The position numbers and the translations under genes were made by a program. From an uncultured Candidatus Peribacteria bacterium (GTDB taxonomy: Bacteria; Patescibacteriota; Gracilibacteria; Peribacterales; Peribacteraceae), in contig CAYXNG010000002.1 in assembly GCA_964466635.1 (NCBI GenBank), positions 1,832-65,831 of the forward strand: a DNA stretch of 64,000 nt. Reading direction: 5' to 3'. Under the pieces are notes generated by a model. The model saw nothing but the letters and a program-made list of their open reading frames with translations, searched no databases and was not told the origin of the DNA. This document shows, one piece after another, positions 20,608-44,991 of the stretch. Every line of letters begins with the position of its first letter. Position 1 is the stretch's first letter.

Positions 20608-22896
20608 ATGCGTTGTGCACGTCGCCTTTCTTCCATTGTCACGATATTCTCATTGCTCTCTCCAGCGTTTGCTCATGCCGCGACGAAGGCGTACATAACG
20701 AATGGATTCTCCAACACTGTTTCGGTATTGAATCTTTCGAATAATCAAACAGTGGATTCCATCAATGCCGGAGGTGCTTCATGGGATGTGGCTATCAACG
20801 GAACCGGTGCATATATCACGCTTTTCAATAGTAATATCGTACGTGTCTACGATACGACGGATAATGAATTGGTAACGACGATTACGGTGGGGGATGGACC
20901 GGTCTATATCGCGTTTTATGGAACAGGTGCGTACATCACAAATTCAAACGATAACAATGTAAGCGTAATCGACACGACAAATTTTTTGGTAGAGAGAACA
21001 ATCGCGGTTGGAAGCAACCCGGGAGGTATTGCTTCGAGCGGTACCGGAATGTACGTCGCAAATAATGGAACCAATACGGTTTCCGTCATTGATGTCACAA
21101 ATAATCTCGTAGAACAGACGTTAACAGTCGGAAGTAATCCCTATGAAATCGCCGCGTCCGGTACCGGTATCTATGTGGCGAATCAAAATGGTTCCACTGT
21201 TTCCATTATTGATAGAAGTAATAACGTCGTGGAAGGAAGCGTCTCTGTCGGGACGAATCCTATCGCCATCGCAATCAGCGGAACAGGTGCGTATGTTGCT
21301 AATTCCGGCAGTGACAATGTGAGCATCATAGATATTTCGAATCGACTGGTGGAGAAAACCGTAACGGTTGGCGGTGATCCAGGTGGTGTGGCAATAAGCG
21401 GAACGGGTGTCTATATATTGAATCGCTCAGGCAATTCGATAAGTGTCATTGATACAGCCAATGGCTTGCTTGAGACAACAATTTCGGGGTTTACCAATCC
21501 AATGCAAATGGCAGTTGCTTCTGATAACGCCACTCTTGCGCCCACGCTCACCGCGCCCGCATCGGGTGCAAGCATTGCTCTCTGCGACGACTTGACGGTG
21601 ACCTACACGCTTCCCGAAAATCCGACGTCGGGATCGGTCGAGATATTTTTCTACAACACATCAACACATACCGGACCCACGTTGACCATGAACAACAGCA
21701 CCGGTGCAAGCTTCAACCTCGATCTGGAAAATTTGACCGCATCGGCAAACGTCGTGTCCGCAACCGGAGGAACAAGTTTAGTAGCAGGCAGTTACGTGAT
21801 GTATCTGAGCTATGAAGATGCATTTGGGAATACAGAGGAAGATGACACGGCGAATCTTACGGTGACAGATTGTCCCGCAAGCAGCTCTTCATCTTCCTCA
21901 TCGGAATCCTCACGGGGAGGCGGGGGTGGCGGTCGCCCGACCATCACACCCGAATATATTCTGGAAGTCGCTGAAAAACGGTTTGGTTCCACGTCCTCAA
22001 GTTCGAAACGGTCGGAGTTTGTGGAAGTGAACGGCCAGGTATTTACCGATGTACGCAGCGGCGAATGGTACGGTACGTTCATCAAAAAAATCGCCGAGCT
22101 CAGAATTTTCGAAGGATATAAAATGTTGGACGGTACGCCGCTGAACCAGTTCGGTCCCGCCGATCCGATCACGCTTGGTCAGCTGGCAAAAGTGGGGACG
22201 ATTCTGTGGGATAAGAAAGACAGGGAGCCCAAGCCGACGGGCAATGAGTGGTTCAAGCCGTATATCGCGACGGTACAGAAACATGAATTAACGGTGTTCC
22301 GCGGATCGCCGAACGCCCTTGCACATGCCACGAGAGGGCACGTCGTGCAAACAATCATGGAAGCGCTGAACTATCCCCTCAGAGACGGCGCATCACCGTA
22401 CGACGATGTTCCCACAGACCATCCGTACATACGGGCGATTGTTACCGCCACGCAGATGGGATTCATCGGCGGTGACAGCGGAACGAATAATTTCCGTCCC
22501 GATGAGCCGATCAACCGCGCGGAAGTGGCGAAGGTCCTCAGTCTCGCGTTGGGACATGTCGGCATCAATTACCTCGATGATCTGCTCTCTGCGACTCCGA
22601 CATCGCGCGCATCAGCGTCAGCATCATCGTCCGTGACTATTTCTTCATCGTCATCATCCGCGTCATCATTGACAAGCAGTACAGCACCCAGCGCGACAGC
22701 CGGAAAAGATATCCGCGTTGTCGCCACCGCCATCCTCAATGTCCGCAGCGATGCGCGCATCGACTCAACGCTTCTCTGGACGGCCAGACAGGGGCAGGAA
22801 TTTGAGGTGTTGCGTATTGTTGCCGAAGATTGGGCGCATGTCCGCGTCTCCGATGGAGGCGAAGGATATGTGTGGGTGCATCATTTGAGTAAGTGA
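20608..22896 (+). CDS. Surface protein: YVTN-type beta-propeller repeats, Ig-like domain, poly-Ser/Gly linker, SLH-like anchor module, C-terminal SH3b-like domain
   Basis: Start at MRCARRLSSIVTIFSLLSPAFAHA. About 8 repeats of GTGAY(I/V)(T/A)N..(S/N)N.VSVID. FTDVRSGEWYGTFIKKIAELRIFEGY and GTNNFRPDEPINRAEVAKV. C-terminal ILNVRSDARIDS...GYVWVHHL. Confidence 0.75.
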   Translation: MRCARRLSSIVTIFSLLSPAFAHAATKAYITNGFSNTVSVLNLSNNQTVDSINAGGASWDVAINGTGAYITLFNSNIVRVYDTTDNELVTTITVGDGPVYIAFYGTGAYITNSNDNNVSVIDTTNFLVERTIAVGSNPGGIASSGTGMYVANNGTNTVSVIDVTNNLVEQTLTVGSNPYEIAASGTGIYVANQNGSTVSIIDRSNNVVEGSVSVGTNPIAIAISGTGAYVANSGSDNVSIIDISNRLVEKTVTVGGDPGGVAISGTGVYILNRSGNSISVIDTANGLLETTISGFTNPMQMAVASDNATLAPTLTAPASGASIALCDDLTVTYTLPENPTSGSVEIFFYNTSTHTGPTLTMNNSTGASFNLDLENLTASANVVSATGGTSLVAGSYVMYLSYEDAFGNTEEDDTANLTVTDCPASSSSSSSSESSRGGGGGGRPTITPEYILEVAEKRFGSTSSSSKRSEFVEVNGQVFTDVRSGEWYGTFIKKIAELRIFEGYKMLDGTPLNQFGPADPITLGQLAKVGTILWDKKDREPKPTGNEWFKPYIATVQKHELTVFRGSPNALAHATRGHVVQTIMEALNYPLRDGASPYDDVPTDHPYIRAIVTATQMGFIGGDSGTNNFRPDEPINRAEVAKVLSLALGHVGINYLDDLLSATPTSRASASASSSVTISSSSSSASSLTSSTAPSATAGKDIRVVATAILNVRSDARIDSTLLWTARQGQEFEVLRIVAEDWAHVRVSDGGEGYVWVHHLSK

Positions 22897-22906
22897 TGAT
22901 TTTTGA

Positions 22907-22935
22907 AAAATGGCTCGACGTGGTTCAGGCGGTTC
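22907..22935 (+). repeat. 29-bp exact direct repeat, copy 1 (aaaatggctcgacgtggttcaggcggttc)
   Basis: Identical 29-mer at 30461-30489. Confidence 0.95.
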
Positions 22936-22965
22936 GGATCAACTACGACCTCATGATGGATGTAG

Positions 22966-23430
22966 TCAGAACGTAGTATTCCGAATTTTTTCAGCAAGTT
23001 CAGCTAGATGTTTATCGTCTGCGCGTTTGTAATCATGCGAGGAGATATAACCTTGGTACCTTTCAAAGAAAATATCGACATCAGATTTCATCTGTTGCCA
23101 TTCTTTCATATCCCCAGTCCCATGCATGGGGAAGAGCTTTGTATGAACATGATTTATGCCAAACCCTTCAAAGATCATGCCGGTTCTGCCAACGTCATCG
23201 AATGCTTTATCCAAGAGTTTGCCCACCTTTTTGGATGCAATGACCAAGTCTGAAAGGACATTGTCCGGCAGGTCAAAGGCGTAACTCGAGAAATGCTTCT
23301 TCGGAATGACTACCGAAAAGCCCTCCGTATTCGGGAAAATCGAGAGGAAAGCAATGTGCGAATCATCCTCCCAAATCTTATGGCAAGGGACTTCTCCAGA
23401 GACAATCTTACAGAAGATGCATTCGGACAT
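22966..23430 (-). CDS. HIT (histidine triad) family nucleotide hydrolase/phosphoramidase-like protein
   Basis: CIFCKIVSGEVPCHKIWEDDSHIAFLSIFPNTEGFSVVIPKKH and diverged triad GINHVHTKLFP. Confidence 0.85.
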   Translation of the reverse strand: MSECIFCKIVSGEVPCHKIWEDDSHIAFLSIFPNTEGFSVVIPKKHFSSYAFDLPDNVLSDLVIASKKVGKLLDKAFDDVGRTGMIFEGFGINHVHTKLFPMHGTGDMKEWQQMKSDVDIFFERYQGYISSHDYKRADDKHLAELAEKIRNTTF

Positions 23431-23516
23431 AACTCGATCTTACCATACTTCAAAAGGACTCAGCCGTACTGAATGAAGTTCGAACCAAGTTCTTGGCTTA
23501 GGTTAAATCAAAGATT

Positions 23517-23538
23517 AATGGCTCCCCGACGTGGCTCC
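23517..23538 (+). repeat. Degenerate copy related both to the 29-bp repeat and to the 3' end of tRNA-Asn
   Basis: aatggctccccgacgtggctcc, compared with the repeat aatggctcgacgtggttc and the tRNA-Asn plus-strand tggctcccccgactgg. Confidence 0.5.
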
Positions 23539-23650
23539 TTCTAGAACTCAGGACAGTGTATAGGATGCTCAGGAATATACAGTTACCGTTGCCACTCACA
23601 GCGTAATGTGTAACATTGACATAAGCAATTTATGCTGTTTTAATAGGATT

Positions 23651-24157
23651 ATGAATAGCATAGCAGCCCCAAAGGGTATTCTCATTGAAGGCGTTGAGTG
23701 CGCAGGCAAGACAACCCTGATCAAAGGAATCAGAGACAAAATTGTACCTTGGGATGCCAAGTATCTTGCGCATCAGCCAGGCCAACAGTTCGAACGTTTC
23801 ATGTACGAGTACATGGTTAATAGGAACATTATTTTCAACAGAGGACATTTTAGTGAAGCAATCTATAGCCGACTGTGGGATCGTGAGACGCCTTTCCAGC
23901 CCCATGAATTGCAGGTGCTGAACGATTATGTACGTCGGAATCTGCTGGTGATTTTATGCGATGCAGATACGGATACTTTGGAAAAGCGTTACAGCGAAAG
24001 GAATTATTCCCAGAAAGCAGCTGCGCCTGAACTTGGCAAAATCCGTGATTTGTTCGAGGACCAATTTCAAGGAGTTGAATGTCTGCGGTACACATCGACT
24101 GACCAGCAAAACCTTGAGAAAGTGCTTGAAGAGATTAAGGCAAAAGTCGGTTCCTAA
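23651..24157 (+). CDS. Small P-loop nucleotide/nucleoside-phosphate kinase-like protein
   Basis: Start at MNSIAAPKGILIEGVECAGKTTLIKGIRD (Walker A). About 169 aa. Convergent with the NTP-transferase gene and overlaps it by 4 nt. Confidence 0.6.
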   Translation: MNSIAAPKGILIEGVECAGKTTLIKGIRDKIVPWDAKYLAHQPGQQFERFMYEYMVNRNIIFNRGHFSEAIYSRLWDRETPFQPHELQVLNDYVRRNLLVILCDADTDTLEKRYSERNYSQKAAAPELGKIRDLFEDQFQGVECLRYTSTDQQNLEKVLEEIKAKVGS

Positions 24158-24945
24158 CTTCCAAACAAATCGCAAAACTTACGCATCATACCGTTGCTGA
24201 TCCATTCGTGATAGATACGAAAATCTTCCTCTGTATCCATCTCGATCCAGCCCCTTTGGACTTTAATTGCCTGAACATTCACGCCTTCATCAATCGTGGC
24301 CTGAATCATATCTGTCATATATGCCTGCCTGAAGGACCGTGAATTATACCAACGATCGCTCTTTCCTGATTGTGATTGTTCGTGCTTATCATGCACTTTC
24401 TTAAAGGCCTCCGTCCCGCTTGAGTCAAATTTTAACAATCCGATATAACGTGCATCCATTTCATTTTCTGCAGGTTGTGGTCTGCCTAGTTCAGTGATTT
24501 GTCCTTGCTCATTCAATTGCAGGCTCTCACTATCACTTTGAACGTTCCCCAGCCTCGTTTTCCAGTACTCCTGAAAATTTGTATCGACCGCGACACCGAT
24601 TGAACATTTTGTGTCACGCATACATTCAAGAATTCTCGGCTCGTACACAATATCCGAATAGCAGAGCAGGCAATCTCCCTCAAACTCGGAACGCGCAGCC
24701 ATGAGTGAACCCACCATATTCGTGGTCGCATACTCTGGATTTTCTACATAACGCACATCAGGGTAATTAATCAATTGTCCCATATATCCTCTGACAATCA
24801 CGATGTCATCTACAATCGTGCGAAGGGCTTCCAATTGGTATTCCAATAGAGGTTTACCGTTCAGGGGAACCAAACATTTCGGCTTGTCTTTCGTATGTTC
24901 CCCTAGGCGACTACCCATGCCGGCGGCGAGTACGATGGCTTTCAT
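24154..24945 (-). CDS. Nucleotidyltransferase (sugar-/phospho-substrate cytidylyl/uridylyltransferase fold)
   Basis: MKAIVLAAGMGSRLGEHTKDKPKCLVPLNGKPLLEYQL signature. Confidence 0.8.
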   Translation of the reverse strand: MKAIVLAAGMGSRLGEHTKDKPKCLVPLNGKPLLEYQLEALRTIVDDIVIVRGYMGQLINYPDVRYVENPEYATTNMVGSLMAARSEFEGDCLLCYSDIVYEPRILECMRDTKCSIGVAVDTNFQEYWKTRLGNVQSDSESLQLNEQGQITELGRPQPAENEMDARYIGLLKFDSSGTEAFKKVHDKHEQSQSGKSDRWYNSRSFRQAYMTDMIQATIDEGVNVQAIKVQRGWIEMDTEEDFRIYHEWISNGMMRKFCDLFGS

Positions 24946-25622
24946 TTGTGAGTGAAGTGAGCAATGACACGATGGAGAAGATCTGCATGCGCATTAACAA
25001 AACCAGCATCTGAGCATTTGCGTTCCGGATGCCACATTAATCCAAGAATTGGTAATTTTGTATGCTCGACTGCTTCGATCGCCCCATCATTTGTCACTGC
25101 GCTTCCTATGAGCTCTTTGCCAAGAGTTTTTATACCCAAGCCATGAAAGGAGTTCACAGTCATTTGTTTCTGATTTCCAAGCAACGACCGCAGTAATTCA
25201 GAGGTGAACTGAATTTCATGATCAACAGCTACATGGCTTTTCGGAGAGGCTACTTCAGCGCATGTTCCTTCATAATATGTATTGATGAATTGTAATCCTC
25301 TGCAAATACCTAGAACTGGCTTTCCATCTTCTATGGCGGTGCGCAGAAGCTTCCACTCTGAACGGTCGCGATCAGCACGTGGATCGTCCGAAGTATCGGA
25401 CTCTGATTTTAGAATAATATTGTCTCCTCCAGAGAGGATAAGCATGGCGACATCGCGAATATACTCAGTACAAATTTCAGGTCTGTTGGGGATAAGAACA
25501 GGCTCAAAGCCCTGACGATGTACATAGTCGATAAGATCGTGAGAAAGGGCATCGCGCCACTCGCCATAGTCACTGCCTACCATTCTCATGGAAATGCCGA
25601 TTTTGTTTGGCGATGTACTCAT
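24942..25622 (-). CDS. Class I glutamine amidotransferase-like / peptidase C26 (gamma-glutamyl hydrolase) family protein
   Basis: Nucleophile elbow PVLGICRGLQFIN and LGLMWHPER His motif. Confidence 0.85.
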   Translation of the reverse strand: MSTSPNKIGISMRMVGSDYGEWRDALSHDLIDYVHRQGFEPVLIPNRPEICTEYIRDVAMLILSGGDNIILKSESDTSDDPRADRDRSEWKLLRTAIEDGKPVLGICRGLQFINTYYEGTCAEVASPKSHVAVDHEIQFTSELLRSLLGNQKQMTVNSFHGLGIKTLGKELIGSAVTNDGAIEAVEHTKLPILGLMWHPERKCSDAGFVNAHADLLHRVIAHFTHK

Positions 25623-28036
25623 TGTGATGATCGAATGGAATGATTCGCACAGTCGATTTCTACCAGGGATTGTCCTTTAAGCTGATCGAAGCGTCTACCT
25701 ACTCCAATAGCGGCGGGCAGCCCGAACTCCGCGCAACGAATCGCCATGTGGGATGCAGCTCCTCCATATTTAGTGACAAGTCCTTGGATTTGATGCACGA
25801 ATATCCAGTCATAGCCGGGGTCAGCACTCTCGATGAAAACAATGCGATTCTGTAATTGCTCGTTTGTTTTACCCGCAGTCAAAACTAGTGGACTTCCAAT
25901 GATGTGCTTTTGCGTAATAAAATTTGGCCTGCTTGCAATGAAGCTCACATGCTCGATATCGGAAACATCGGCGATGAGCTCGGGCAAGATGACCAGCTCC
26001 TGCTGTTCATATCTTATGCGTGCGTTGGCACTTGCATTTCTAATGCGACTTATAGCATCAGCATCGGCAGCGCTTCTCATAGACTGAATTGCATTGATGT
26101 CCAAGTAAGATAAATCATCCTTTGTGAGTGAGTGCTGTTGTCCCCATTCGGCAATGAGTTGCAGTGCATCGCTGACATTTTTCGTGAAGAGAAATTTCGC
26201 GTCTTCCCTGCCGACGATGCTCAACTTGGCGAATTCGAGTACATCGTTTACATCCAGTGAAGACCCCGCATTTCTCAAAACAGATTGCATGGCTGCGAGT
26301 TCAGATGCTACCCATTGAAAATCCCTTGCCTCCTCCACATTAGAAGCTATGTCTGATTGAATGGGAGTTGCGGATCCAAAATATAAATCGGTTGCTTCAT
26401 CATAGCGTGGAGATGAGATATCAAAGGTCCCCGGCCTTAAATGCCCATACTTCTGTAGAAATCCCTCAAGCGGCAATTCTCCTTTCCGGACTCGTGTGAG
26501 TTCTTGCCCCATTTGCCCAGCTGCTGTCTCGAATGATTGCAAAAACGCATTATAGGAGGAATCAGAGATGGCACCTTTTGCAACAAAGGATCGAAGCATC
26601 GCATTGCCAACGAATGCCATTCTGGCAATGGCGGAAAAGCCCTTCGTCCCTCTTTTTCTACAATCAGCTACAAGGAATCGAACACATTCCAGCATGTTTT
26701 CCGGTTGTTTCGTTGCAAGTATGGAAGATCTCGCTTTGTCCATTTGAGCCATTTCGGTCATGTAAGACGCGAGATCACCACGACCACCGCGGATTAATGT
26801 CTCGGTGTGTTTGAGTAGGACCCTCCTGACATCAGCGATTTGATGAGGTGACAATCCGGCGGCTTCAAATCGTGGAGTGCAATCGTCGAAAGAAGGAGTG
26901 AAACAATTGGTCGCCACATCAAACTCCACTTTGTCGTGAAGATGTGGTCTTGCCTGGAGGTAATCCAAAGATTCATTGATTATGCGCTCTCTTTGGGAGG
27001 GGCCAATGAGCTTAGGAAGAAGTGAATTGAAACTGTTTCTCACATCCACGTACGGGCGACCTGCTAGGGTGACGAGCAATTTTTCTCCTTCCGGATTGTA
27101 GTAACCAAGCTCTCCTCTCGCTTCTCTCCATGCACTATCCGTAATCAGTGACTCGAACATTGAGAGTGCAAGCGGACGCGGATGACTTCCTACCAATTCT
27201 GCGGGATTCCAGTCCGACATATCACTCAATATTGCCCTGCGTCCTGCGACACCCGCCTTCCGTTCATTGCAGCGGCCAATAGCAATCCTCGTTTCTTCTA
27301 TGACTGACTGAATATTCGACGACTTGAACCGTTCCAGAGCCGCCTTTTGTGCCAAAGGGCGAACCTGAAAAAGGTATAACTGCTGCTTATTGTCGAAAGC
27401 AAATTCGATATCCAAAGCGTTGTTGTCTGCTAGAGACTCAAGTTCTTTGGCACATTCAACCAGCGACGCTAGGCGAGGATCGTTCGGCGGTGCTCCGCCA
27501 TTTCTGTAGATGTAGTGAGTCTGTTGTTCCTCTGAAACTCCACTTGTGATTTTGTCCGTGGCACCAGAATCGTCGTAGTTGATAACGTAGTACGGTGCAC
27601 CGTTTTGTATGTCGCAGGTGAACATGACACCGCAAATTGCAACATCCGTAAGCTGCGGCTGGATTAGAACCTGATGCTTGCCGTCTTTATCTCCGTATGA
27701 TTTCACGACTCGATTGATGGCTTCAAAAATTGCTGATGCATTAGGTCTCTCCACATTGAGTACAGAGTCGAAAGCACCAGCATTCGACGAATCCGCTGTA
27801 TCCTCAGATAAAGCAGAACTGCGAACAATGAGAAGTCCATCACTAAAATGTCTTTGTACATTGCTAACAATATTCGTTGCATACTGCTTCCATTGCTGCA
27901 CCGTAAAGTGGATTTGTGGAAGAATAATCGCGCTTTTCAGGATTGGACGGAGCCTGTCCAGAGTCTCGGCCTTGGTGCCGAGTTCAATGTGCTTTTTGGG
28001 AACATCAGAGCCGATGAGCGGATCTTGCTCAGGCAT
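25619..28036 (-). CDS. PEP-utilising-enzyme family protein (N-terminal PEP/pyruvate-binding ATP-grasp, C-terminal swivelling phosphohistidine domain)
   Basis: 805 aa. N-terminal GTKAETLDRL...IVRSSALSEDT. C-terminal GLVTKYGGAASHMAIRCAEFGLPAAIGVG. Confidence 0.8.
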   Translation of the reverse strand: MPEQDPLIGSDVPKKHIELGTKAETLDRLRPILKSAIILPQIHFTVQQWKQYATNIVSNVQRHFSDGLLIVRSSALSEDTADSSNAGAFDSVLNVERPNASAIFEAINRVVKSYGDKDGKHQVLIQPQLTDVAICGVMFTCDIQNGAPYYVINYDDSGATDKITSGVSEEQQTHYIYRNGGAPPNDPRLASLVECAKELESLADNNALDIEFAFDNKQQLYLFQVRPLAQKAALERFKSSNIQSVIEETRIAIGRCNERKAGVAGRRAILSDMSDWNPAELVGSHPRPLALSMFESLITDSAWREARGELGYYNPEGEKLLVTLAGRPYVDVRNSFNSLLPKLIGPSQRERIINESLDYLQARPHLHDKVEFDVATNCFTPSFDDCTPRFEAAGLSPHQIADVRRVLLKHTETLIRGGRGDLASYMTEMAQMDKARSSILATKQPENMLECVRFLVADCRKRGTKGFSAIARMAFVGNAMLRSFVAKGAISDSSYNAFLQSFETAAGQMGQELTRVRKGELPLEGFLQKYGHLRPGTFDISSPRYDEATDLYFGSATPIQSDIASNVEEARDFQWVASELAAMQSVLRNAGSSLDVNDVLEFAKLSIVGREDAKFLFTKNVSDALQLIAEWGQQHSLTKDDLSYLDINAIQSMRSAADADAISRIRNASANARIRYEQQELVILPELIADVSDIEHVSFIASRPNFITQKHIIGSPLVLTAGKTNEQLQNRIVFIESADPGYDWIFVHQIQGLVTKYGGAASHMAIRCAEFGLPAAIGVGRRFDQLKGQSLVEIDCANHSIRSSQ

Positions 28037-28081
28037 AAAGTGTATTACTATAAACCAATGTATGTGTTAGTCAAATTTCTT

Positions 28082-28633
28082 TTACTCGCCGTCCTCCACG
28101 ATATATTCCCATCCTGGCCTCCAAGCCTTCGTATGCCTCCAGTCTTCTTCCATAGCCTGCTCCCAAGATTTTCCTTTTAACACCACATCAAGAGCCAGCT
28201 GAGGGCCTTGATGAGCCACTATCGCTATGTGTTTGCCCTTATAGGCTTTCTTTATGAATTCGATAAAATCTGCAATTCTTCGCTCGATATCTTTGTAGCT
28301 CTCGCCGCCCGGAAAAGGCTGATCTATGTAATTTGTGAGATTCTGCTTAAAGTCGTCAGCGGGTTTTTGCGTGAAATCCCCGTAGTTTGCCTCACGCAAT
28401 CTTTCATCAACAACTATCGGACAGCGACCTTCAAAAGCAAGATGGGCAGAATCAATGGCTCTTTGAAGGTCAGAGCAAAAAACAACATCGAATTTTTGTG
28501 GTGCCTGAGTGCCAAGCTCCTTTGCCTGTTTTTTCCCTAACTCGGACAACTCGCCATGAGCCCATCCCGTAGCGAGATCCTGCTCGTTATCCGTTGTCGT
28601 GCCGTGGACGAAATACGTGATTTTCAGAGGCAT
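28082..28633 (-). CDS. Histidine phosphatase (phosphoglycerate-mutase-like) superfamily protein
   Basis: Start at MPLKITYFVHGTTTDNE. VVFCSDLQRAIDSA and IVAHQGPQLAL motifs. Confidence 0.7.
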   Translation of the reverse strand: MPLKITYFVHGTTTDNEQDLATGWAHGELSELGKKQAKELGTQAPQKFDVVFCSDLQRAIDSAHLAFEGRCPIVVDERLREANYGDFTQKPADDFKQNLTNYIDQPFPGGESYKDIERRIADFIEFIKKAYKGKHIAIVAHQGPQLALDVVLKGKSWEQAMEEDWRHTKAWRPGWEYIVEDGE

Positions 28634-28662
28634 TGGTGATGAATCATAGCGTACTTTGCTCA

Positions 28663-28703
28663 CTAATAAAACAGTACCCTGCACACTTTCGCGTGCAGGG
28701 TAC
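28663..28703 (-). terminator. Rho-independent terminator downstream of the HD gene
   Basis: Perfect 11-bp inverted repeat gtaccctgcac/gtgcagggtac (28674-28703) with an 8-nt loop, followed on the minus strand by TGTTTTATT. Confidence 0.6.
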
Positions 28704-28729
28704 CGAGCTGACGATCGTCGTGCATCTTC

Positions 28730-29368
28730 TCACGACGCTGCGGCGGCCATCGCAACCGACAGTTCATCCGGACCGAAGGACAGGTACTGGAAGAGTTCGC
28801 GCTCGAGGGTTTTCTCCTCTTGCAGCTTCTGCTCCCACCAGCCCTCGCCCTTGTCGATCCACTTGTGCTTGTAGGCCTCACGGAGATACGCGAGCCGCTC
28901 ATCGAACGAGGTGATCTGATCGAATTGCACGCGCCAGTCGGCGTAGTGCAGGATCTTCAGTTCGATGCAGTCGGTCAGGTACGTCGGGTTTCCCGTCGAG
29001 CCGATCTTCGAGACGAAGACGGCGAATTCGGGGAATTCATCACGGAACATCTCGGCGGCCACCAGCGTCTCGTGCATGCCGGTGAACCGCGTGCGGAGTT
29101 GCTTCCACACCTCAATCTCGCGTTCGCTTGGGGTGTAACCCCATTCGGGACGCGCTTCGAGCGTGGGAAGCGATGCGGTCTTGAACGCGTCATGGAGACG
29201 GCAGCCGATGGTGACGAGTTCGATGTCCACCTCAGCTCCCCCCTCGCGCATCTTCTGCGCAAGGAACGTTCCGACCTCTGCGACTTTGGCGCAGTGCCTA
29301 CGGATCGGCTCCGGAACCGCATAGCGGTCCAGGAGATCGTCGCAGTACTGCTCTGAAGGAATCTTCAT
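28730..29368 (-). CDS. HD-domain metal-dependent phosphohydrolase
   Basis: IGCRLHDAFK (HD dyad) and LHYADWRV. Start chosen at MKIPSEQ (29368), which has GAGG upstream. Confidence 0.75.
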   Translation of the reverse strand: MKIPSEQYCDDLLDRYAVPEPIRRHCAKVAEVGTFLAQKMREGGAEVDIELVTIGCRLHDAFKTASLPTLEARPEWGYTPSEREIEVWKQLRTRFTGMHETLVAAEMFRDEFPEFAVFVSKIGSTGNPTYLTDCIELKILHYADWRVQFDQITSFDERLAYLREAYKHKWIDKGEGWWEQKLQEEKTLERELFQYLSFGPDELSVAMAAAAS

Positions 29369-29477
29369 GGCTGACCTCACTTTCTGGTTAGGGTACGGGT
29401 TGCGATGCTTGAAAAGAACGCCAGCTCTACTTCCCCAGCATCATGCTGAGGAATGTGCAGTCTACATACCTAAATTA

Positions 29478-29491
29478 TATATTGCAATATA
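29478..29491. promoter_or_regulatory. Perfect 14-bp palindrome TATATTGCAATATA in the divergent intergenic region
   Basis: Self-complementary 14-mer between the HD gene (minus) and the sulfotransferase-like gene (plus). Confidence 0.3.
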
Positions 29492-29534
29492 AATACTATA
29501 TGTCTAATATTGGGAGGTTCCTACTATTCTTGCA

Positions 29535-30362
29535 ATGAATCAGTCATCAAATGAATTGAATAAAGATTTGCGAACTTTGATTTGTTGCGGTCGCAGCGGG
29601 TCTACAGCTCTGCTGCACTGTCTTTCGCAAAGCGACAGCGTGGATGCACGTTATCAGCTTATTAAGACAAGCGTCAGGGATGCAGTACGCTCACAAGCAA
29701 TACCGCCCGCAGAAAGTGACACTGGTGACTACGCAGAAGACTATTCCATTTATTATGGACAGAGCGATCCTAGTAAAACAGTGGTTCTTAAAGAAACCAT
29801 CGGTTCATATAACATTCCAGAATGTGACTATTCTGTTTTTCCCAAGTCAGAAAAAGATCAAGCGATTCGCGCTACCCGTCCCGTGTTTCTTGTACGGGAT
29901 CCTCTGGAAGTAATGGACGCAAAAAAACGGAGAGGCTGGAAATCTACTTTGGAGAATTCTGTGAGGGCTTATGGAAATGTTTTCAAGGAATACCAACATG
30001 CCAAATCTGTAGCTCCGGAAAGCGTATTGAGCTGTACGTATCAACACTTAATGAGCGATCCAGAAAAAACTATTCGCAGAGTTTGCGATCATTGGGGAGT
30101 TAGATATGAAGATGTTATGTTGAAATGGCGATATCCATTCCCATCTGCAATTAAAGGCGGCAAGGATTTTTATGAATTGGGAGCCACCGGCGCATTTGAT
30201 GGAATTGCAAAAAGTGAAACACTAAAAGCGAAAGAGTACCAAGGCTTAACGCTAGACGTTGCCTCGATACTACGAATGACGAGAGGCGATCTCAATAGGG
30301 TTTACGACTATTATGAAAAAATGAAAGTGGATGCAGATCGAGATTTCGGCGAAACTGTCTAA
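29535..30362 (+). CDS. Sulfotransferase-fold (Stf0-like) protein
   Basis: P-loop-like 5'-phosphosulfate-binding motif LICCGRSGSTALL and 3'-phosphate-binding-like VFLVRDPLEV. Confidence 0.6.
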   Translation: MNQSSNELNKDLRTLICCGRSGSTALLHCLSQSDSVDARYQLIKTSVRDAVRSQAIPPAESDTGDYAEDYSIYYGQSDPSKTVVLKETIGSYNIPECDYSVFPKSEKDQAIRATRPVFLVRDPLEVMDAKKRRGWKSTLENSVRAYGNVFKEYQHAKSVAPESVLSCTYQHLMSDPEKTIRRVCDHWGVRYEDVMLKWRYPFPSAIKGGKDFYELGATGAFDGIAKSETLKAKEYQGLTLDVASILRMTRGDLNRVYDYYEKMKVDADRDFGETV

Positions 30363-30460
30363 TGCATGTGTGTGCATTCCCTCCTTCCAGAAGAACTAAT
30401 TATGAAGAATCGATAAAGCAAAGCCTAAGTTTGAAATACTGCTTAATCGACCTAGCGTAC

Positions 30461-30489
30461 AAAATGGCTCGACGTGGTTCAGGCGGTTC
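30461..30489 (+). repeat. 29-bp exact direct repeat, copy 2
   Basis: Identical to 22907-22935. In this copy aatggctc pairs with the downstream gagccatt to form a hairpin. Confidence 0.95.
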
Positions 30490-30615
30490 AGAGCCATTAT
30501 GATTTGATGTCGCAGTTGTATACATAGCTTCTAAGCGCTCAAATTGCCTTTTAAGATAAATATTTGGTTCTATACTTCAGTTCATGTCAGTTTTTAAATT
30601 TAAAGCTCAAATTGC

Positions 30616-33045
30616 ATGGTAAATGTGATTCAGCTGACTGCTGGCTCTATAGCATCACGTCCATGGAAGAAGAGGCCAGGCTTTGATCGTAACCGTGTTG
30701 TAGAGCCAGGGGACTATGGTTTTCAAGCCGGCAATTTAAATGCTTGTTTTAGCAGATTTAAAAATCAAAGCGAATTGGTAAGGGAAGGAATTAATCGTTA
30801 TTTGGAAATTCAACTATTCCCTGAACCTCAAGAACTTAAGGAAGATTATTTCAGGTATCTGGGTGAGCAGTATGCTTTGACCCTTAAGAAAATTGAGAGT
30901 GCCGGGATGCATTCAAGGGCACATTTTCAAATTGAAAATCTAGACTTGCTTCTCAGAAATCTAGAGCAAGTAATACGCGAATTTGAGGGTTATTCTCAGG
31001 AGCAAATTGCTGCTACAGATTTCACAGCAGGCCGTATTAAATTATGGCGCTACTTTCAGCTAAGCACGAGTCAGACAAAAAATCGTGTAGAACCTGTTGA
31101 AGATTTTGATGCACTCAGGTTGAAAGTGGATTTTATAGAAAGCGCCCCAGACTTTAGTAGTGTTGTTTCAGCTGCGGCTATCTCCTCAGGCATTGATGCG
31201 ACTCTTTATCCAAACGGCATCATTAGCATAAAACAAATACGAGAGAATGGGGCACGTAGAGTAGCCGATTTTGCTGAACGCCTTTCACAATATGACAAAA
31301 TACATTTCATAAAATTGGATGATTTTGTTTCAACAATTGAATCTCCTCTTCAGGGTGGGCGATTGGAAGAACGAGAATATGTAATACAGAGAATTGCCCC
31401 AGACGCTCCTGTGGTTGCTGTTATAGATACTGGTGTGCAGAGTCACATTTTGACAAATAGCTTCCTGACAGATGATGGATTGGATTATAGATCGGGTGTT
31501 AGCGATCCCAGAATTGCTGCCCCTTTTGTAGATAACGTTGGCCATGGAACTGCTGTCGCAGCAGAAATTGCTTATGGCAAAAGTATTGAAGAATATCTAA
31601 TTGCCAAGAATGAGGAATATCTCATTCCACTGGTAAAAATTTTTCCAGTGCGGATAGCTGATACAACAAAGAATTTTACTGTGCCTTACGATAAGATTTT
31701 CGACATTAATGGACACTTTGCAGAAGCTGTAAGACGTTACAATATCAAGCTTGTAAATATTAGTTTCGCAAGCACTCAACAAAAATCATTTGAAGAAGAA
31801 AAAATCTCTGAGGCTGCAAACTTAATGGATAGATTTGCCAAGGAACTAGGTGTTACATTTATAGTTTGCGTTGGAAATATTGATTTTGGGAAGCTCGAAA
31901 GTTTAATAGCAGCAGATAGTAGTTTTCTGTTTTTTCAGAGACCCAATGGCTATGGGGAGCCAACTGCTAATCCTCTTTTTAAATGCATAAATATAGGTGC
32001 GCCTTCTGATTTACTCTCAGGAGTGGTGGTTGGCAGTTGTTATCCGCAAAAGTCTAAGTTTGTTGTATCCACATTCAATCGATCTTATTCATTTGATAGT
32101 GTTCGTAATGGGTATTCAAAGCCAGATGTGTTGGCAATTGGCGGAGGGGATGCACCAGTTGATTTAGAATCTTTGCCAGCGCGTGTCTGCAACTCCAGTC
32201 AACGGGTAAGTGTTTTATCGCAGCACGAATCTTTTTTAGCACAGCAAATTGGTACAAGTTTTTCAACTCCAAGGGTTACCAGAGCACTCGCCATCGCTAT
32301 AATCAAATATCCTGACATCTCTCCCGAAACTTTGAAGTGTCTTTTTCTTCATAAAGCCAGCAACTACATGGCTCCAGATAAAAAATATGGCATGAATTTT
32401 GGAACAGTAAATTTACAAAGACGCTCAATAGAATTTGCAGATATTTATAAAGGATTTGGCAGCTTGACCGAGGTTAATGAGTCTGATTTTTTTGAAGATT
32501 CTGAGGATGAAATTTCTTTCATCATCGAGGGCGCTGTACCAGCTGAAAAGATGATCTCTTATCGAGTACCTTTGGCTGCAATGTTAGGTGACGGCACAAC
32601 GGCCAGAACCAACAAAATGGAACTTAAGCTTTCAATTTGTACACTTCCCCGGAGTACTAGAACTGGTGAGGTATCTTTAAAATCAGCAAATCCCTTTCAT
32701 GTGGCAGCATTCATGCACGTTAATAGTTTGGTTCCTACTCGCACAATGATTTTTGCGGGTAGGCAATATCGCGATCAGTGCATACGTAGCAATACTCCAG
32801 GTATAATACTTGGTTGGACCAGTGATTATCAGGTGCGCCATTTTCCAACATTTTCTATACAATCGAAAATGTATAGGAAGGATAAGTTGGCAGCACTGTT
32901 AGGAAGTGGAGATTCGGCGACAATTACCGTAAGAGGTCTTTCAGAATCTGCTGCGCAGACTACCGCTAAGTTTGCGATAGTCTTTTCAGTCAAAGACCTT
33001 GGTGCAACAGGCGAAATTAGGAACCGTATCAGAATCAACGTATAA
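30616..33045 (+). CDS. S8 (subtilisin-like) serine peptidase with unknown N-terminal (~265 aa) and C-terminal (~220 aa) domains
   Basis: Catalytic triad motifs VVAVIDTGV (Asp), DNVGHGTAVAAEI (His), GTSFSTPRVTRALA (Ser), and oxyanion Asn in VCVGNID. No signal peptide. Confidence 0.9.
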   Translation: MVNVIQLTAGSIASRPWKKRPGFDRNRVVEPGDYGFQAGNLNACFSRFKNQSELVREGINRYLEIQLFPEPQELKEDYFRYLGEQYALTLKKIESAGMHSRAHFQIENLDLLLRNLEQVIREFEGYSQEQIAATDFTAGRIKLWRYFQLSTSQTKNRVEPVEDFDALRLKVDFIESAPDFSSVVSAAAISSGIDATLYPNGIISIKQIRENGARRVADFAERLSQYDKIHFIKLDDFVSTIESPLQGGRLEEREYVIQRIAPDAPVVAVIDTGVQSHILTNSFLTDDGLDYRSGVSDPRIAAPFVDNVGHGTAVAAEIAYGKSIEEYLIAKNEEYLIPLVKIFPVRIADTTKNFTVPYDKIFDINGHFAEAVRRYNIKLVNISFASTQQKSFEEEKISEAANLMDRFAKELGVTFIVCVGNIDFGKLESLIAADSSFLFFQRPNGYGEPTANPLFKCINIGAPSDLLSGVVVGSCYPQKSKFVVSTFNRSYSFDSVRNGYSKPDVLAIGGGDAPVDLESLPARVCNSSQRVSVLSQHESFLAQQIGTSFSTPRVTRALAIAIIKYPDISPETLKCLFLHKASNYMAPDKKYGMNFGTVNLQRRSIEFADIYKGFGSLTEVNESDFFEDSEDEISFIIEGAVPAEKMISYRVPLAAMLGDGTTARTNKMELKLSICTLPRSTRTGEVSLKSANPFHVAAFMHVNSLVPTRTMIFAGRQYRDQCIRSNTPGIILGWTSDYQVRHFPTFSIQSKMYRKDKLAALLGSGDSATITVRGLSESAAQTTAKFAIVFSVKDLGATGEIRNRIRINV

Positions 33046-33053
33046 TCTTCCCC

Positions 33054-33941
33054 ATGAAGGCAATGGTTCTACAGAAAAAATCATCATCCAATGGCAGCTA
33101 TTACGATAGTCTTCAATCATTGTTGGGTAATGAGAAGAAACTGGAAACATTTAAGTCGCAGGGAAAAGAGCAAGATTTGTTCGTTAGTGATAGAGCATAT
33201 GAAATAATTAATTCTAAGGTTAAATTCCAAGATGTCGTCCAAACACCTTCATTGAAAAGTGACTTCACAAATTTAATAAATGAATTTTTGCACAAGGAAA
33301 CTTTGAAAAGTTACGGAATAAATGCCGACAATAAAATTATCTTCTTCGGTCCATCTGGCTGTGGCAAAACGATGTCAGCAATGGCTCTTGCTAACAAGTT
33401 AAATAAAAAGCTTTTTCTCGTAAATTTAGCCACCATTGTAGACAGTAGCTTAGGTAAAACTAGTAGTAACGTTGCCGAAATAGTAGCGGAGGCTGCGTCT
33501 CAGAATGGTATTATTTTCTTTGATGAATTTGATGCTTTGGCCAAAATGAGAAGCGATGAGAATGACCACGGTGAGATGAAGAGAGTGGCTAGCTCGATTA
33601 TTCAGATTTTGGATTTCCTGAATGAAGATTCAGTATTCATTGCTGCAACTAATCATATTGATTTGATTGATAAGGCTATCTTACGAAGGTTTGGTAAAAA
33701 GATTTCATTTGATATGCCAACGCCTAAGTTGCTTGAAATCTATATTGAAAAAATCATCAAACCAACCAACTTGAAAATGTCAAAATCAGTCATGAAGGCC
33801 ATTGCAACTGAACTACAAGGCTTATCGTTTGCTGAGGCCAGAGATGCTTTCTTGGCGAAATTAAAAAGATACTTGATTGCTAAAAGTAAGAATAATAAGG
33901 CATCTCTAAAAAGTATTTCATCTGACATTTTGAAAGTCTGA
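33054..33941 (+). CDS. Classical AAA+ ATPase
   Basis: Walker A FFGPSGCGKT, Walker B IIFFDEFDAL, sensor-1 FIAATNH, Arg finger region KAILRRF. Starts 8 nt after the S8 gene stop. Confidence 0.9.
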   Translation: MKAMVLQKKSSSNGSYYDSLQSLLGNEKKLETFKSQGKEQDLFVSDRAYEIINSKVKFQDVVQTPSLKSDFTNLINEFLHKETLKSYGINADNKIIFFGPSGCGKTMSAMALANKLNKKLFLVNLATIVDSSLGKTSSNVAEIVAEAASQNGIIFFDEFDALAKMRSDENDHGEMKRVASSIIQILDFLNEDSVFIAATNHIDLIDKAILRRFGKKISFDMPTPKLLEIYIEKIIKPTNLKMSKSVMKAIATELQGLSFAEARDAFLAKLKRYLIAKSKNNKASLKSISSDILKV

Positions 33942-34183
33942 AGTCATGCACACAAAGTGCTAGATATTGTCTGAAAAACCAATTAGGAGTATTTTAGAAG
34001 TGCACCAGTAGATCTATCGGTATGGACGGCGCGTATTGCGCTGCCTTCAAGAGAGCCTCGAAAGGGGCGCTGACTCCGTCAGCTTTCTCTGAAGGTTCGT
34101 CCTGATGGGTCTGCTGGTGCGCGGAGCAACAGCGCCCCTTTAGTGCGTCTGGACTCCAGGAATTACTTCCTTCTCCAATTTCT

Positions 34184-35360: not shown

Positions 35361-36980
35361 ATGAAGTATTTCCTCTACTGCCGAAAGTCATCTGATCGCG
35401 ATGATAAACAGGTGCTGAGCATTGAAGCTCAGCAGAGAAAGATGCTTGAAATAGCTGAGAAATTGCATCTTGAAATAGTTGCTGTTTTCCTTGAGCAGAA
35501 GTCTGCTTATAAAACAGGAAGACCGCAGTTCAATGAGATGATGGATAGACTTGAGAAAGGAGAGGCAGATGCCATTCTCACGTATCACCTCACGCGCCTA
35601 GCGCGTAATAGCTTTGATGGCGGAAGAATCGTCTATGCCTTGGACGATAAAGTCATCAAGGAAATTCGGACAGAGGACAGTGTTTTCACCAACATCTCTG
35701 ATGAAAAGTTCATCATGAATATTCACTTTGCGATGTCGAAGAAAAGCTCAGACGACACCAGTCAGTTTGTCCGGCGTGATATCGAAACCAAATTGAAGAA
35801 AGGAGAGTTTCCCGGAGTCGCACCACTTGGTTATCTAAATATCGATAAAAGAGGAACGATAGCCGGACGGCATTATTCGCAGGAGCGACAGAAGATGCTA
35901 TTTGATCTGAACCGACCGCTCAGGCGTGAGGAGATCGACCCGATTAACGGGCCAATTGTGAAGAAGATATTTGAAGAGGCAAGCAAGGGCGTGAAGTCGC
36001 TGAAAGCATTGCGTGAATTGAGTTGGGAACTGGGTCTACGTTCCAAGAACGGTAACAAGCTGCCTGAGGCGACGGTATATGCCATTCTCACCAATCCGTA
36101 CTACTACGGAGTGATCCGCATGAACGGAAAGATCTACGCAGAGAATATTCAGCATGAACCTCTCATTAGTAAACAACTTTTTGATCGAGTGTTACAGCTG
36201 TTACATCAACGTGGCAAAGGCGGAGGTGGCGCACAGCGTCATTTCTTCCCCTACACGGGTCTCTTCAAATGTGGCGAATGCGGCTGTGGTATTACGGCGG
36301 AAATACAAAAGGGACATATTTACTATCACTGCACTCACCGAAAGGGATACTGTAGCCAGCGAACGTGGATATCAGAAGAAAATATGGAGGAACAAATTCG
36401 AGGAGTAATCGACAGGCTTGTAATTCCTGCATCATTCGTAGAGTTTGCATTTAAGAAGCTCAAAGATTCGCACAAAATAGAGGCACAGGTGCAGAACACT
36501 GCGCGTGCGAATACAGAGAGAAGATATGGTCAGCTGAAAGCGAAGTTAGATGCCCTCTTGGAACTAAAGCTATCTCCCAATAATACGAAAGGGGAGCTGC
36601 TGAACGATCAGGAATACATGGACCGTAAGTCAACGATCCAGAATGAAATGCACGAACTGGAACAGCAACGGGAATCATTCAAGAAGCAAGCTGACACTTG
36701 GTTGCAAGACTGCGAGAACTTCATCTCCTTCACACAGGAGTTAGGGCAAAGATACGGCATGGTCAGTTTAGAACGTAAGAAGGAGTTGATGTTCCTGCTT
36801 TGTTCGAAAGGTACCGTAACCAACGGTTCTTTGGCTTTCTCTTACCGAGAGCCGTTCGCGACACTCGCTGAATTCCCCTTAGCCGGTAAAGGCCGGTTCG
36901 AACCGCCTTCGTCGCTTTCTGAAAAGAAGAAGTCCGATTTGTTTACAAAGTGGCTCCCCCGACTGGATTCGAACCAGTAA
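35361..36980 (+). CDS. Large serine recombinase (resolvase N-domain, recombinase domain, zinc ribbon, coiled coil)
   Basis: YCRKSSDRDDKQVLSIEAQ (catalytic Ser region), LTRLARNSFDG, CGECGCGITAE...YYHCTH zinc ribbon. The last 30 nt overlap tRNA-Asn on the opposite strand. Confidence 0.9.
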   Translation: MKYFLYCRKSSDRDDKQVLSIEAQQRKMLEIAEKLHLEIVAVFLEQKSAYKTGRPQFNEMMDRLEKGEADAILTYHLTRLARNSFDGGRIVYALDDKVIKEIRTEDSVFTNISDEKFIMNIHFAMSKKSSDDTSQFVRRDIETKLKKGEFPGVAPLGYLNIDKRGTIAGRHYSQERQKMLFDLNRPLRREEIDPINGPIVKKIFEEASKGVKSLKALRELSWELGLRSKNGNKLPEATVYAILTNPYYYGVIRMNGKIYAENIQHEPLISKQLFDRVLQLLHQRGKGGGGAQRHFFPYTGLFKCGECGCGITAEIQKGHIYYHCTHRKGYCSQRTWISEENMEEQIRGVIDRLVIPASFVEFAFKKLKDSHKIEAQVQNTARANTERRYGQLKAKLDALLELKLSPNNTKGELLNDQEYMDRKSTIQNEMHELEQQRESFKKQADTWLQDCENFISFTQELGQRYGMVSLERKKELMFLLCSKGTVTNGSLAFSYREPFATLAEFPLAGKGRFEPPSSLSEKKKSDLFTKWLPRLDSNQ

Positions 36981-37025
36981 CCCTCTCGTTAACAGCGAGA
37001 TGCTCTACCATTGAGCTACAGGGGA
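36951..37025 (-). tRNA. tRNA-Asn (anticodon GTT), CCA encoded
   Basis: The minus strand reads TCCCCTG TA GCTC AATGGTA GAGC A TCTCG CTGTTAA CGAGA GGGTT ACTGG TTCGAAT CCAGT CGGGGGA G CCA. This gives a full cloverleaf. It begins with U and has discriminator G, as in E. coli tRNA-Asn. Confidence 0.9.
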
Positions 37026-43134: not shown

Positions 43135-44991
43135 TTACCGCTCTCCTGCTACCTCTATATCTTCCGGTCCGCCACTGACGACAGCTTTGATGCGTCGCAC
43201 GCCGGCACTCGAGCTCTCTTCTTTCTGGATCTTGAACGATCCGAGCACGCCGGTACGAGACACATGCGGGCCGCCGCAGATCTCTTTGCTGAAGACGGTC
43301 CCGTCACCGATTTTACCGCTGCCGGCAGTCATACCGTTGGGGTCACCCATCACGTAGACTTTCACCTCCGCACCGTAGCGATCATCGAACACGCCGATCG
43401 CGCCTTCTTCTTTCGCACCGTCAACGTTGGTCAGGTGGTACGTCACCAGCAGATCGGCCTTGATCGCGTCGTTGACGAGATCCTCGACTTCTTTGATCTG
43501 TTCGGGCGTCATTTTGTCGCCGTGCGTGAAGTCGAAGCGCAGTCGCTCCGCTGTGATATTGCTTCCTTTCTGCATAACGTGGTTTCCGAGGACGCGATGC
43601 AATGCGGCGTTCAGAAGGTGCGTCGCGGTATGGAGCTTGGTTGTCTCGCTGCTGTTATCGGCCAGACCGCCTTTAAATTTCTGCTCAGCACCTGCACGGG
43701 AAAGGCTCTGGTGAGCGGCAAAAGCTGTATTAAATCCTTGTTCATCAACGGTCAGCCCTTGCTCCTGTGCCATCTCTTTGGTCAGTTCCAGTGGGAAGCC
43801 GTAGGTGTCGTACAAATGGAAGGCGAGTTGACCGTCAATCTGTTTGCCGGTTGTTTCCTCGGCGACTTTTGAAAATCGTTTCAGCCCTTCCTGAAGCGTT
43901 TTTCCGAACTGCTGCTCCTCGTGGCTGAGGGTATCGCGGATCTCTTTTTCCTGATCCTTCAGGGCTCCGTAGATATGTCCGTACTGAGCAATCACCTCAT
44001 CGGCGATGCTCGCGCAGAATGATCCGTCGTGCGTTATACCAAGTGCGCGGGCAGACCGGATCGCGCGACGAATCAGTCGACGCAGTACATAGGACTGATC
44101 GACATTTCCCGGCTTCACGCCGTCGGCGATAATGAAAACCGAGGCTTTCAAGTGGTCGGTGATGATACGAAGGTGACGGATATCCGTTGTCCGTTGTCCG
44201 TTGTCCGTTTGAAGAGATCGGACTTTTTCCAAAATCGGCTTCATCCGATCGGTCTCATACACGTTATCGACTCCCTGCAGCACGGCTGCGACACGCTCGA
44301 GGCCCATACCGGTATCGACGTTCTGCTGCACGAGCGGTTCGAATGTGCCGTCTTCCTTCTTGTTGTACTGCATGAACACGTCGTTCCAGATCTCCATCCA
44401 TTCCGCGTCATGTGTTGCGGGGTTGCCGGTCGGTTCACCCTCGCCGACCCAGTAGAACATTTCGGTATCCGGACCGCAGGGGCCGGTCTGCCCCGCAGGA
44501 CCCCACCAGTTCTTTGCCTTTGGCAGAAAACCGATGCGTTCGCGCGGAATACCGAGGGATTCCCAGATGCCGGCGGATTCTTCGTCCCGTGGAGCATCGC
44601 TGTCACCCTCAAAGCAGGTGACGGCCAAGTGGCTGATGGGGATTTCCAAGACGTCGGTCAGAAATTGAAAGCTCAGCTTGATGGCCCCTTCTTTAAAATA
44701 GTCACCCAAGCTCCAGTTTCCCATCATCTCGAACATTGTCAGGTGTGATGCATCGCCGACTTCATCGATGTCGCCGGTGCGAACGCAGCGCTGCGCATCA
44801 ACCAGCCGTTTGCCCATCGGGTGCGGCTCTCCCAGAAGGTACGGGACCAACGGGTGCATGCCGGCGGTCGTAAACAGCACCGTCGGGTCATTTTCAGGAA
44901 CCAGTGGAGCGCCCGGTATCACGGCATGGCCGTTTTCCGCGAAGAAATCGAGGTAGGCCTGGCGCAGTTCGTCGGTTGTGAGGCGTTTCAT
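43135..44991 (-). CDS. alaS: Alanine--tRNA ligase, short form (catalytic, tRNA-recognition and editing domains; no C-Ala domain)
   Basis: MKRLTTDELRQAYLDFFAENGHAVIPGAPLVPENDPTVLFTTAGM. Editing motifs HTATHLLNAALH and CGGPHV. Ends about 40 aa after CGGPHV. Confidence 0.9.
   Translation of the reverse strand: MKRLTTDELRQAYLDFFAENGHAVIPGAPLVPENDPTVLFTTAGMHPLVPYLLGEPHPMGKRLVDAQRCVRTGDIDEVGDASHLTMFEMMGNWSLGDYFKEGAIKLSFQFLTDVLEIPISHLAVTCFEGDSDAPRDEESAGIWESLGIPRERIGFLPKAKNWWGPAGQTGPCGPDTEMFYWVGEGEPTGNPATHDAEWMEIWNDVFMQYNKKEDGTFEPLVQQNVDTGMGLERVAAVLQGVDNVYETDRMKPILEKVRSLQTDNGQRTTDIRHLRIITDHLKASVFIIADGVKPGNVDQSYVLRRLIRRAIRSARALGITHDGSFCASIADEVIAQYGHIYGALKDQEKEIRDTLSHEEQQFGKTLQEGLKRFSKVAEETTGKQIDGQLAFHLYDTYGFPLELTKEMAQEQGLTVDEQGFNTAFAAHQSLSRAGAEQKFKGGLADNSSETTKLHTATHLLNAALHRVLGNHVMQKGSNITAERLRFDFTHGDKMTPEQIKEVEDLVNDAIKADLLVTYHLTNVDGAKEEGAIGVFDDRYGAEVKVYVMGDPNGMTAGSGKIGDGTVFSKEICGGPHVSRTGVLGSFKIQKEESSSAGVRRIKAVVSGGPEDIEVAGER

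Follow-up and report, generated by a model that had tools for sequence, protein, structure and literature searches.

An IetAS-family gene pair of protease-first order on a recombinase-bearing island in a Candidatus Peribacteria bacterium

The 64,000-nucleotide stretch analysed here, referred to throughout as the window, comes from an uncultured Candidatus Peribacteria bacterium and carries two adjacent genes for a subtilisin-like (S8) protease and an AAA+ ATPase. The pair is genuine and belongs, largely as one would expect, to the known IetAS family, which is reportedly among the defence systems of Gao et al. 2020 and in which a subtilase, IetS, is paired with an ATPase, IetA. We consider it likely that the cassette is a two-gene module of this family with the protease gene first (‘ietSA’), horizontally acquired on a serine-recombinase island and acting through toxin-antitoxin or abortive-infection logic. 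What is new is modest: as judged by sequence comparison the pair belongs to a rare, deeply diverged protease-first lineage with a shortened IetA that is found partly in bacteria of the candidate phyla radiation (CPR).

Assignment of both proteins to the IetAS family

The two open reading frames (ORFs) lie where an earlier note on this DNA had placed them, with the same strand, lengths and 8-nucleotide spacing (TCTTCCCC), and a chance ORF pair is excluded by the E-values of the hidden Markov model matches and by a gene pairing that is kept in eight independent loci. Comparison with the PADLOC Iet models had been named beforehand as the test of whether this is an IetAS-like protease and AAA+ defence pair, and it returned matches for both proteins. 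The ATPase matches two IetA models at 1.4e-61 and 3.8e-61, the latter match spanning 284 of 330 profile positions, while the protease matches the IetS model PDLC02198 at 1.4e-21 and seven further IetS models. With the single protease sequence the IetS match is restricted to residues 257-683, which fits the impression in the earlier note that domains of no known kind flank the catalytic core.

When the protease was searched exhaustively with HMMER against 1.84 billion representative proteins, 12 matches below 1e-30 were obtained, including the query. The 11 relatives comprise ten full-length proteins of 799-832 amino acids and one fragment of 569 amino acids, with identities of 31-42%, and all 11 are matched by the PADLOC IetS models. 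Scores then fall sharply, from 189 bits at the end of the clade to 77 bits where a large family of proteases of about 750-890 amino acids begins. We aligned the clade and, separately, 31 proteins of the large family, among them an Agrobacterium plasmid protease encoded directly downstream of an AAA+ gene. In hhalign the two alignments match with 100% probability and an E-value of 1.3e-67 over 723 columns (positions 21-818 against 17-798). All 31 proteins match PADLOC IetS models, the best at 4e-141, and the Agrobacterium plasmid IetS-like protein scores 1.7e-27, which is comparable to the value for the window protease. Because the match to IetS is nearly full length, the N- and C-terminal regions are ordinary IetS domains that have strongly diverged and not additions to the protease. 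The extra terminal domains proposed earlier are thus rejected, since they align with the corresponding regions of PADLOC-verified IetS proteins, and the suggestion of a novel protease-based conflict system is unsupported.

Further searches added little. A word-index search that used the clade alignment brought up the same four proteins again, and scans of metagenomes, genomes and viral contigs gave distant relatives only, save for one Candidatus Peribacteria metagenome-assembled genome (MAG). Two PHROG families with no assigned function, phrog_3964 (1.4e-36) and phrog_3757 (3.4e-68), between them cover both proteins, so relatives occur in phage genomes too.

In the protease, Pfam gives Peptidase_S8 alone (residues 264-593, 1.6e-26), and the layout is an N-terminal domain of approximately 1-255, an S8 core of approximately 260-595 and a C-terminal domain of approximately 600-809. 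The catalytic triad and the oxyanion asparagine, which the earlier note had read as intact, are seen as D271 (DTG), H310 (HGT), S548 (GTS) and N421 (GN), and these four residues are invariant across 38 IetS-like proteins from three clades. In neither protein of the pair is there a signal peptide or transmembrane segment (maximum Kyte-Doolittle mean over 19 residues, 1.33), and the N-termini of the protease homologues are likewise not hydrophobic, in agreement with the cytoplasmic location predicted before. No Inhibitor_I9 propeptide was found in the protease either, so that both the signal peptide and the propeptide that mark the classical secreted subtilisins (S8A) are lacking. A profile search of the Protein Data Bank (PDB) with the protease gave weak generic subtilase cores only (E >= 1e-3) and no IetS structure. 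Near the N-terminus of IetS, at residues ~15-25 (within window positions 30616-30720), there is a basic, glycine-rich motif that reads WKKRPG here and [KR]xRPGGG in the other two Iet lineages. It is the sole recognisable N-terminal feature retained by all three lineages and may serve the ATPase as a handle or be a site of processing.

The ATPase carries a Pfam AAA domain at residues 95-220 (6e-29). Its Walker A (GPSGCGKT, 99-106), Walker B (IIFFDE, 153-158), sensor-1 (N200, in AATN) and arginines R211/R212 are all present, again as noted earlier, and the motif residues are invariant or nearly so in 60 relatives. The AlphaFold2 model has a mean predicted local distance difference test (pLDDT) score of 81.6, with residues 46-295 confident and residues 1-45 disordered. 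Foldseek placed Ycf2-FtsHi, Rix7, proteasomal Rpt, Vps4, Msp1 and p97 on top (E 1e-16 to 1e-14, template-modelling score about 0.7), and a PDB sequence search matched p97 and Cdc48 at 4e-40. No IetA structure was found by PDB profile search. On this model the ATPase is predicted to have the fold of the classical-clade AAA+ translocases. The pore-loop-1 position (residues 129-134; window 33438-33455) reads SSLGKT here and SKLGET in relatives, with L133, G134 and T136 conserved. A non-aromatic pore loop is unusual for a classical-clade AAA+ enzyme that is expected to thread substrates.

Gene order and relationships within the Iet family

To describe the arrangement of the two genes across the family we ran profile searches on six-frame ORFs of 97 fetched loci and also looked up the contexts of IetA relatives. 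The protease gene precedes the ATPase gene in all eight independent loci of the clade, namely the window, L001 (the Candidatus Peribacteria MAG), L003, L004, L098, L099, L100 and L101, and the gap, 8 nucleotides in the window, ranges from -4 to +20 nucleotides. No third conserved gene is common to these eight loci. The survey yielded 89 paired rows with an S8 ORF, a count that includes redundant contigs and split ORFs; 57 of them are convergent, many being redundant human-gut contigs, and 25 run from ATPase to protease, these being from Agrobacterium (including pAtCG920), Neobacillus, actinobacteria and one viral contig. The order with ietA upstream of ietS that is typical of characterised examples, and that is absent from the window, is therefore not family-defining. 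Toxin-first or ‘reverse order’ operons are known among toxin-antitoxin systems in higBA, hicAB and mqsRA; their proteins and mechanisms are unrelated to the present pair and the parallel is one of operon logic only.

Neighbour-joining trees of IetS and IetA were built from 38 pairs. Three monophyletic groups in both trees coincide with the three gene arrangements, with the protease-first and convergent groups as sisters in both. The internal topology of the protease-first group is identical in the two trees, and the two genes therefore co-evolve as a unit. Compared with the other groups, the clade averages about 16-18% identity in IetS (full length) and 25-31% in IetA; the values against the IetAS lineage of pTiC58 are ~16.5% and ~25%, respectively, the window clade being separate and monophyletic in both trees. 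The close relatives of the window IetA form a small group of 293-310 amino acids at 41-62% identity, followed by a large group of ~340 amino acids at ~35-40%, and the window protein represents the shortest form of IetA in the survey. The convergent pairs, which come from human-gut and environmental metagenome contigs (for example L006, L020 and L044), contain the closest IetA relatives outside the window clade (~31-40% identity) and proteases that match the IetS profile strongly. They differ from the window pair in that the genes face each other and in that IetA, at ~330-345 amino acids, has an extra N-terminal helix. The earlier proposal that the protease-first order marks a distinct variant holds to the extent that the order is a real, clade-specific trait, but the arrangement varies throughout the family and is a weak mark of novelty.

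Most of the clade resides in low-GC DNA (0.25-0.42). The locus L099 (2210-5556) comes from a genome of 24% GC, and its two genes contain 58 in-frame TGA codons and zero in-frame TAA or TAG codons, a pattern that places it in a UGA-recoded lineage. Database translations of this locus read tryptophan where glycine is conserved, which fits code 25 (Gracilibacteria/Absconditabacteria), and its protease gene is split into 215 and 589 amino acids by a frameshift or as a pseudogene. Together, the recoding of L099 and the Peribacteria MAG L001 point to CPR bacteria as frequent hosts of the clade. It is tempting to go further and regard the protease-first lineage as a functionally distinct third Iet branch that is native to low-GC genomes of CPR bacteria (Patescibacteria), among them UGA-recoded genomes, and a toxin-first operon with a shortened IetA could reflect another way of sensing infection or of releasing the protease than that of the ietA-to-ietS systems; we regard this proposal as tentative and on balance rather doubtful. 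Solo IetS-like proteases of ~730-740 amino acids were also seen (L057, L060, L062, L065, L066, L091 and L094), none of which has an AAA+ gene within 1.5 kb or any conserved neighbour.

Predicted role and competing explanations

IetAS was originally reported from pTiC58 as a toxin-antitoxin pair that stabilises the plasmid, in which the protease is the toxin and the ATPase the antitoxin (cited in PMC13069673 and PMC8562856). Mycoplasmas tolerate deletion of the ATPase gene only when the protease gene goes with it, and expression of the protease alone kills (PMC8562856). Protection against phages by IetAS requires protease activity (PMC13069673) and takes the form of abortive infection, and in a Bacillus system toxicity is switched on by a single phage protein, SPbeta YosG (bioRxiv 10.1101/2022.08.27.505566; PMC13069673). 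As late as April 2026 the molecular mechanism was still called unknown (PMC13069673). By analogy with these homologues we propose that the window pair likewise consists of a toxin and its antitoxin, that it leads to abortive infection and that it depends on protease activity, and the abortive-infection or toxin-activation logic put forward in the earlier note agrees with this published work (PMC13069673; bioRxiv 10.1101/2022.08.27.505566; PMC8562856). The two genes would be co-transcribed and, given the 8-nucleotide gap, are probably translationally coupled. IetA, probably as a hexamer, would spend ATP to keep the cytoplasmic subtilase IetS inactive, perhaps, more speculatively, by binding or remodelling its regulatory N-terminal region. 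A phage, or loss of the island, would remove or block IetA, and the freed IetS would then cleave essential cell proteins, whose identity is speculative. Growth would stop or the cell would die, so that the infection would be aborted and the island would also be addictive.

Several observations weigh against this proposal. Anti-phage activity is known from homologues and is a prediction for this pair, and with the low identity to the characterised lineages the function of the pair could have drifted. The toxin-first order is unlike that of the characterised systems, which run from ATPase to protease, and so is the short IetA, which lacks a predicted helix formed by the first ~25-30 residues of the long form. 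The aromatic residue of pore-loop-1 is absent from IetA family-wide. No sigma-70-like consensus site was found upstream of the protease by a simple scan, and a PADLOC scan of the neighbours in the window, including those of the segment described below as Island A, gave only an insignificant match between a HIT protein and ThsC2. Finally, the AlphaFold2 model of the protease, made from a four-sequence alignment, reached a pLDDT of 30.5 and was unusable, also for a fold comparison of the two terminal domains.

One could also suppose that the pair is an addiction module that stabilises the island by post-segregational killing and has no anti-phage role at all. The plasmid-stability function under which IetAS was first described, as cited in the two papers above, would suit such a module, as would the location of the pair on a serine-recombinase island, which is shared by L004, and the lack of a PADLOC defence gene beside it in the window. 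Homologous IetAS systems protect against phages through abortive infection, however (PMC13069673; bioRxiv 10.1101/2022.08.27.505566), and members of the clade adjoin restriction-modification and other defence-type genes, so that we find an exclusively addictive role unlikely; addiction and defence are not mutually exclusive, and sequence cannot separate them. A further possibility is a split ATP-dependent protease, in effect Lon or FtsH in two pieces, in which an AAA+ ring unfolds substrates and feeds them to the subtilase. The genes are tightly coupled and co-evolving, and the fold of IetA is that of classical-clade AAA+ translocases that partner proteases (FtsHi, proteasomal Rpt, AFG3L2). 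Against this, the protease of the homologues is toxic alone and is neutralised by the ATPase, which is the opposite of what an obligatory feeder would do (PMC8562856; PMC13069673), and related IetS-like proteases of ~735 amino acids exist without an AAA+ partner. Pore-loop-1 reads K/S-L-G and not aromatic-hydrophobic-glycine throughout the family, and the missing aromatic makes simple processive unfolding by IetA doubtful. We therefore regard a split protease as very unlikely. The notion of an ordinary secreted subtilase with the ATPase as an accessory chaperone has in its favour only that most S8 proteases are extracellular. It is rejected as extremely improbable, as the protein has no signal peptide, transmembrane segment or I9 propeptide and is homologous over its full length to the intracellular IetS toxins, and its gene lies on a mobile island.

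The toxin-antitoxin or abortive-infection module that we prefer shares with the IetAS of pTiC58 and the PADLOC models a cytoplasmic protease of ~750-890 amino acids with an N-domain/S8/C-domain layout, a classical AAA+ ATPase of ~300-345 amino acids, adjacent genes, conserved catalytic and ATPase residues and a mobile or defence-type context. It also resembles Mycoplasma TA132/133, in which an S8 protease is the toxin and an AAA+ ATPase the antitoxin (PMC8562856), roles that are predicted for the window pair. That system, which we liken to ours by its description, is chromosomal with signs of horizontal transfer, and it differs in having the antitoxin gene upstream and proteins of 353 and 757 amino acids (PMC8562856). 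The ietHAS system (Liu-DS4) has the same core of IetA and IetS, and its defence needs protease activity, but it contains a third, essential gene for an SNF2 helicase (PMC13069673), to which nothing conserved in the eight protease-first loci corresponds.

The puzzles posed by IetAS are how an AAA+ ATPase restrains an intracellular subtilase of 800 amino acids, what releases IetS and what IetS cuts. The locus alone leaves the current picture unchanged, and standard defence-finder models already recognise both genes. It does add a compact and very divergent pair to the family, and the features that survive at about 16-18% identity, which are the catalytic tetrad, the basic glycine-rich N-terminal motif of IetS and the non-aromatic pore loop of IetA, are of the kind that can guide mutagenesis and structural work. 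The Iet family can be described as three co-evolving lineages distinguished by gene arrangement, one of which extends into CPR bacteria, a group with poorly known defence repertoires.

The genomic island and its surroundings

The coordinates of the pair and of the features around it are collected in Table 1. The pair is situated within a low-GC stretch of ~14 kb (23-37 kb) that ends at a transfer RNA (tRNA) gene, tRNA-Asn, which together with the large serine recombinase bears out the tRNA-linked island beside a recombinase described in the earlier note; its AT-rich region upstream of the cassette was found as well. The GC content of the cassette is 0.39 compared with 0.53 in the remainder of the window, and at third codon positions it is 0.31 and 0.36 in the protease and ATPase genes, 0.52 in the recombinase gene and 0.65 in the host alanyl-tRNA synthetase gene. 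The cassette is foreign by composition. A scan for promoters and terminators gave no more sites than expected by chance, and an Rfam search of the island found nothing except the tRNA.

Table 1. Location of the IetAS-family genes and of other features in the window
Feature	Position	Strand	Basis or remark
ietS-like gene, S8 subtilase, 809 amino acids	30616..33045	+	ATG start
ietA-like gene, classical-clade AAA+ ATPase (predicted fold), 295 amino acids	33054..33941	+	ATG start
AT-rich upstream intergenic region, presumed promoter or operon 5' untranslated region	30363..30615	+	GC 0.375; includes the middle copy of the 29-nucleotide direct repeat
Large serine recombinase, 539 amino acids	35361..36980	+	Pfam Resolvase + Recombinase + Zn_ribbon_recom; PHROG integrase 2.8e-65
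tRNA-Asn (GTT), right border of low-GC island	36951..37025	-	ARAGORN; Rfam tRNA 72.3 bits; GC profile shift
SLH-domain beta-propeller protein	20521-22896	+	
Alanyl-tRNA synthetase, short (650 amino acids), PRK01584 type	43135-45087	-	
Transfer-messenger RNA (tmRNA), 395 nucleotides, tag AKRNFLGARFQSPAFVPALTFA	57091-57485	-	

The last 10 codons of the recombinase gene overlap the 3' end of tRNA-Asn, and the island junction therefore appears to be inside the tRNA gene; excision would alter the C-terminus of the recombinase. A perfect direct repeat of 29 nucleotides, AAAATGGCTCGACGTGGTTCAGGCGGTTC, occurs at 22907-22935 and 30461-30489, where none would be expected by chance, and extends to 49 nucleotides (22907-22955 and 30461-30509). 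The left copy starts 10 nucleotides past the stop of the SLH/beta-propeller gene and the middle copy ends 126 nucleotides before the protease ATG, so that the repeat brackets a low-GC segment of 7.5 kb and the cassette lies between the repeat and the recombinase. The sequence (T)ACAAA-TGGCTC recurs in both copies and at the 3' end and flank of tRNA-Asn, and the repeats look like putative attachment (att) scars of two islands inserted in tandem. The bracketed segment, Island A (22966-30362), encodes a HIT protein, a P-loop kinase-like protein of 183 amino acids, an NTP_transf_3 nucleotidyltransferase, a C26 glutamine amidotransferase, a PPDK_N/PEP-utilizer protein of 805 amino acids, a His_Phos_1 phosphatase, a weakly HD-like protein of 216 amino acids and a sulfotransferase. 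Such an unusual set of enzymes could synthesise or modify a nucleotide-like small molecule.

Mobile-element genes accompany the pair elsewhere in the clade, with a recombinase or integrase in five of the eight protease-first loci. A large serine recombinase (27.6% identity) also lies downstream of the pair in L004, the most closely related locus, and tyrosine integrases are present in L001, L098 and L101. In L098 (3534-8888) the pair directly follows an HpaII-type type II restriction-modification system in the same orientation (MTase_II 1e-105, REase_II 5e-86), with two tyrosine integrases nearby. This arrangement recalls the non-random co-localisation of restriction-modification and ietAS reported for E. 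coli (bioRxiv 10.1101/2022.08.21.504612). The pair in L001 is flanked by a DUF4238-Pers-like gene and an HNH-effector-like gene, and that in L003 is followed by a Schlafen/AlbA_2 gene.

A long branched hairpin lies 59 nucleotides past the ATPase stop at 34000-34122 and folds far better than shuffled sequence. It matches no Rfam family, and the related loci lack it. Its minimum free energy is -89.2 kcal/mol on the + strand (z -6.5 against shuffled sequences) and -66.0 kcal/mol on the - strand (z -4.05), a difference that suggests a + strand RNA with G-U pairs. At the position of the hairpin, apparently the right edge of the cassette, GC content rises abruptly from 0.36 to 0.50.

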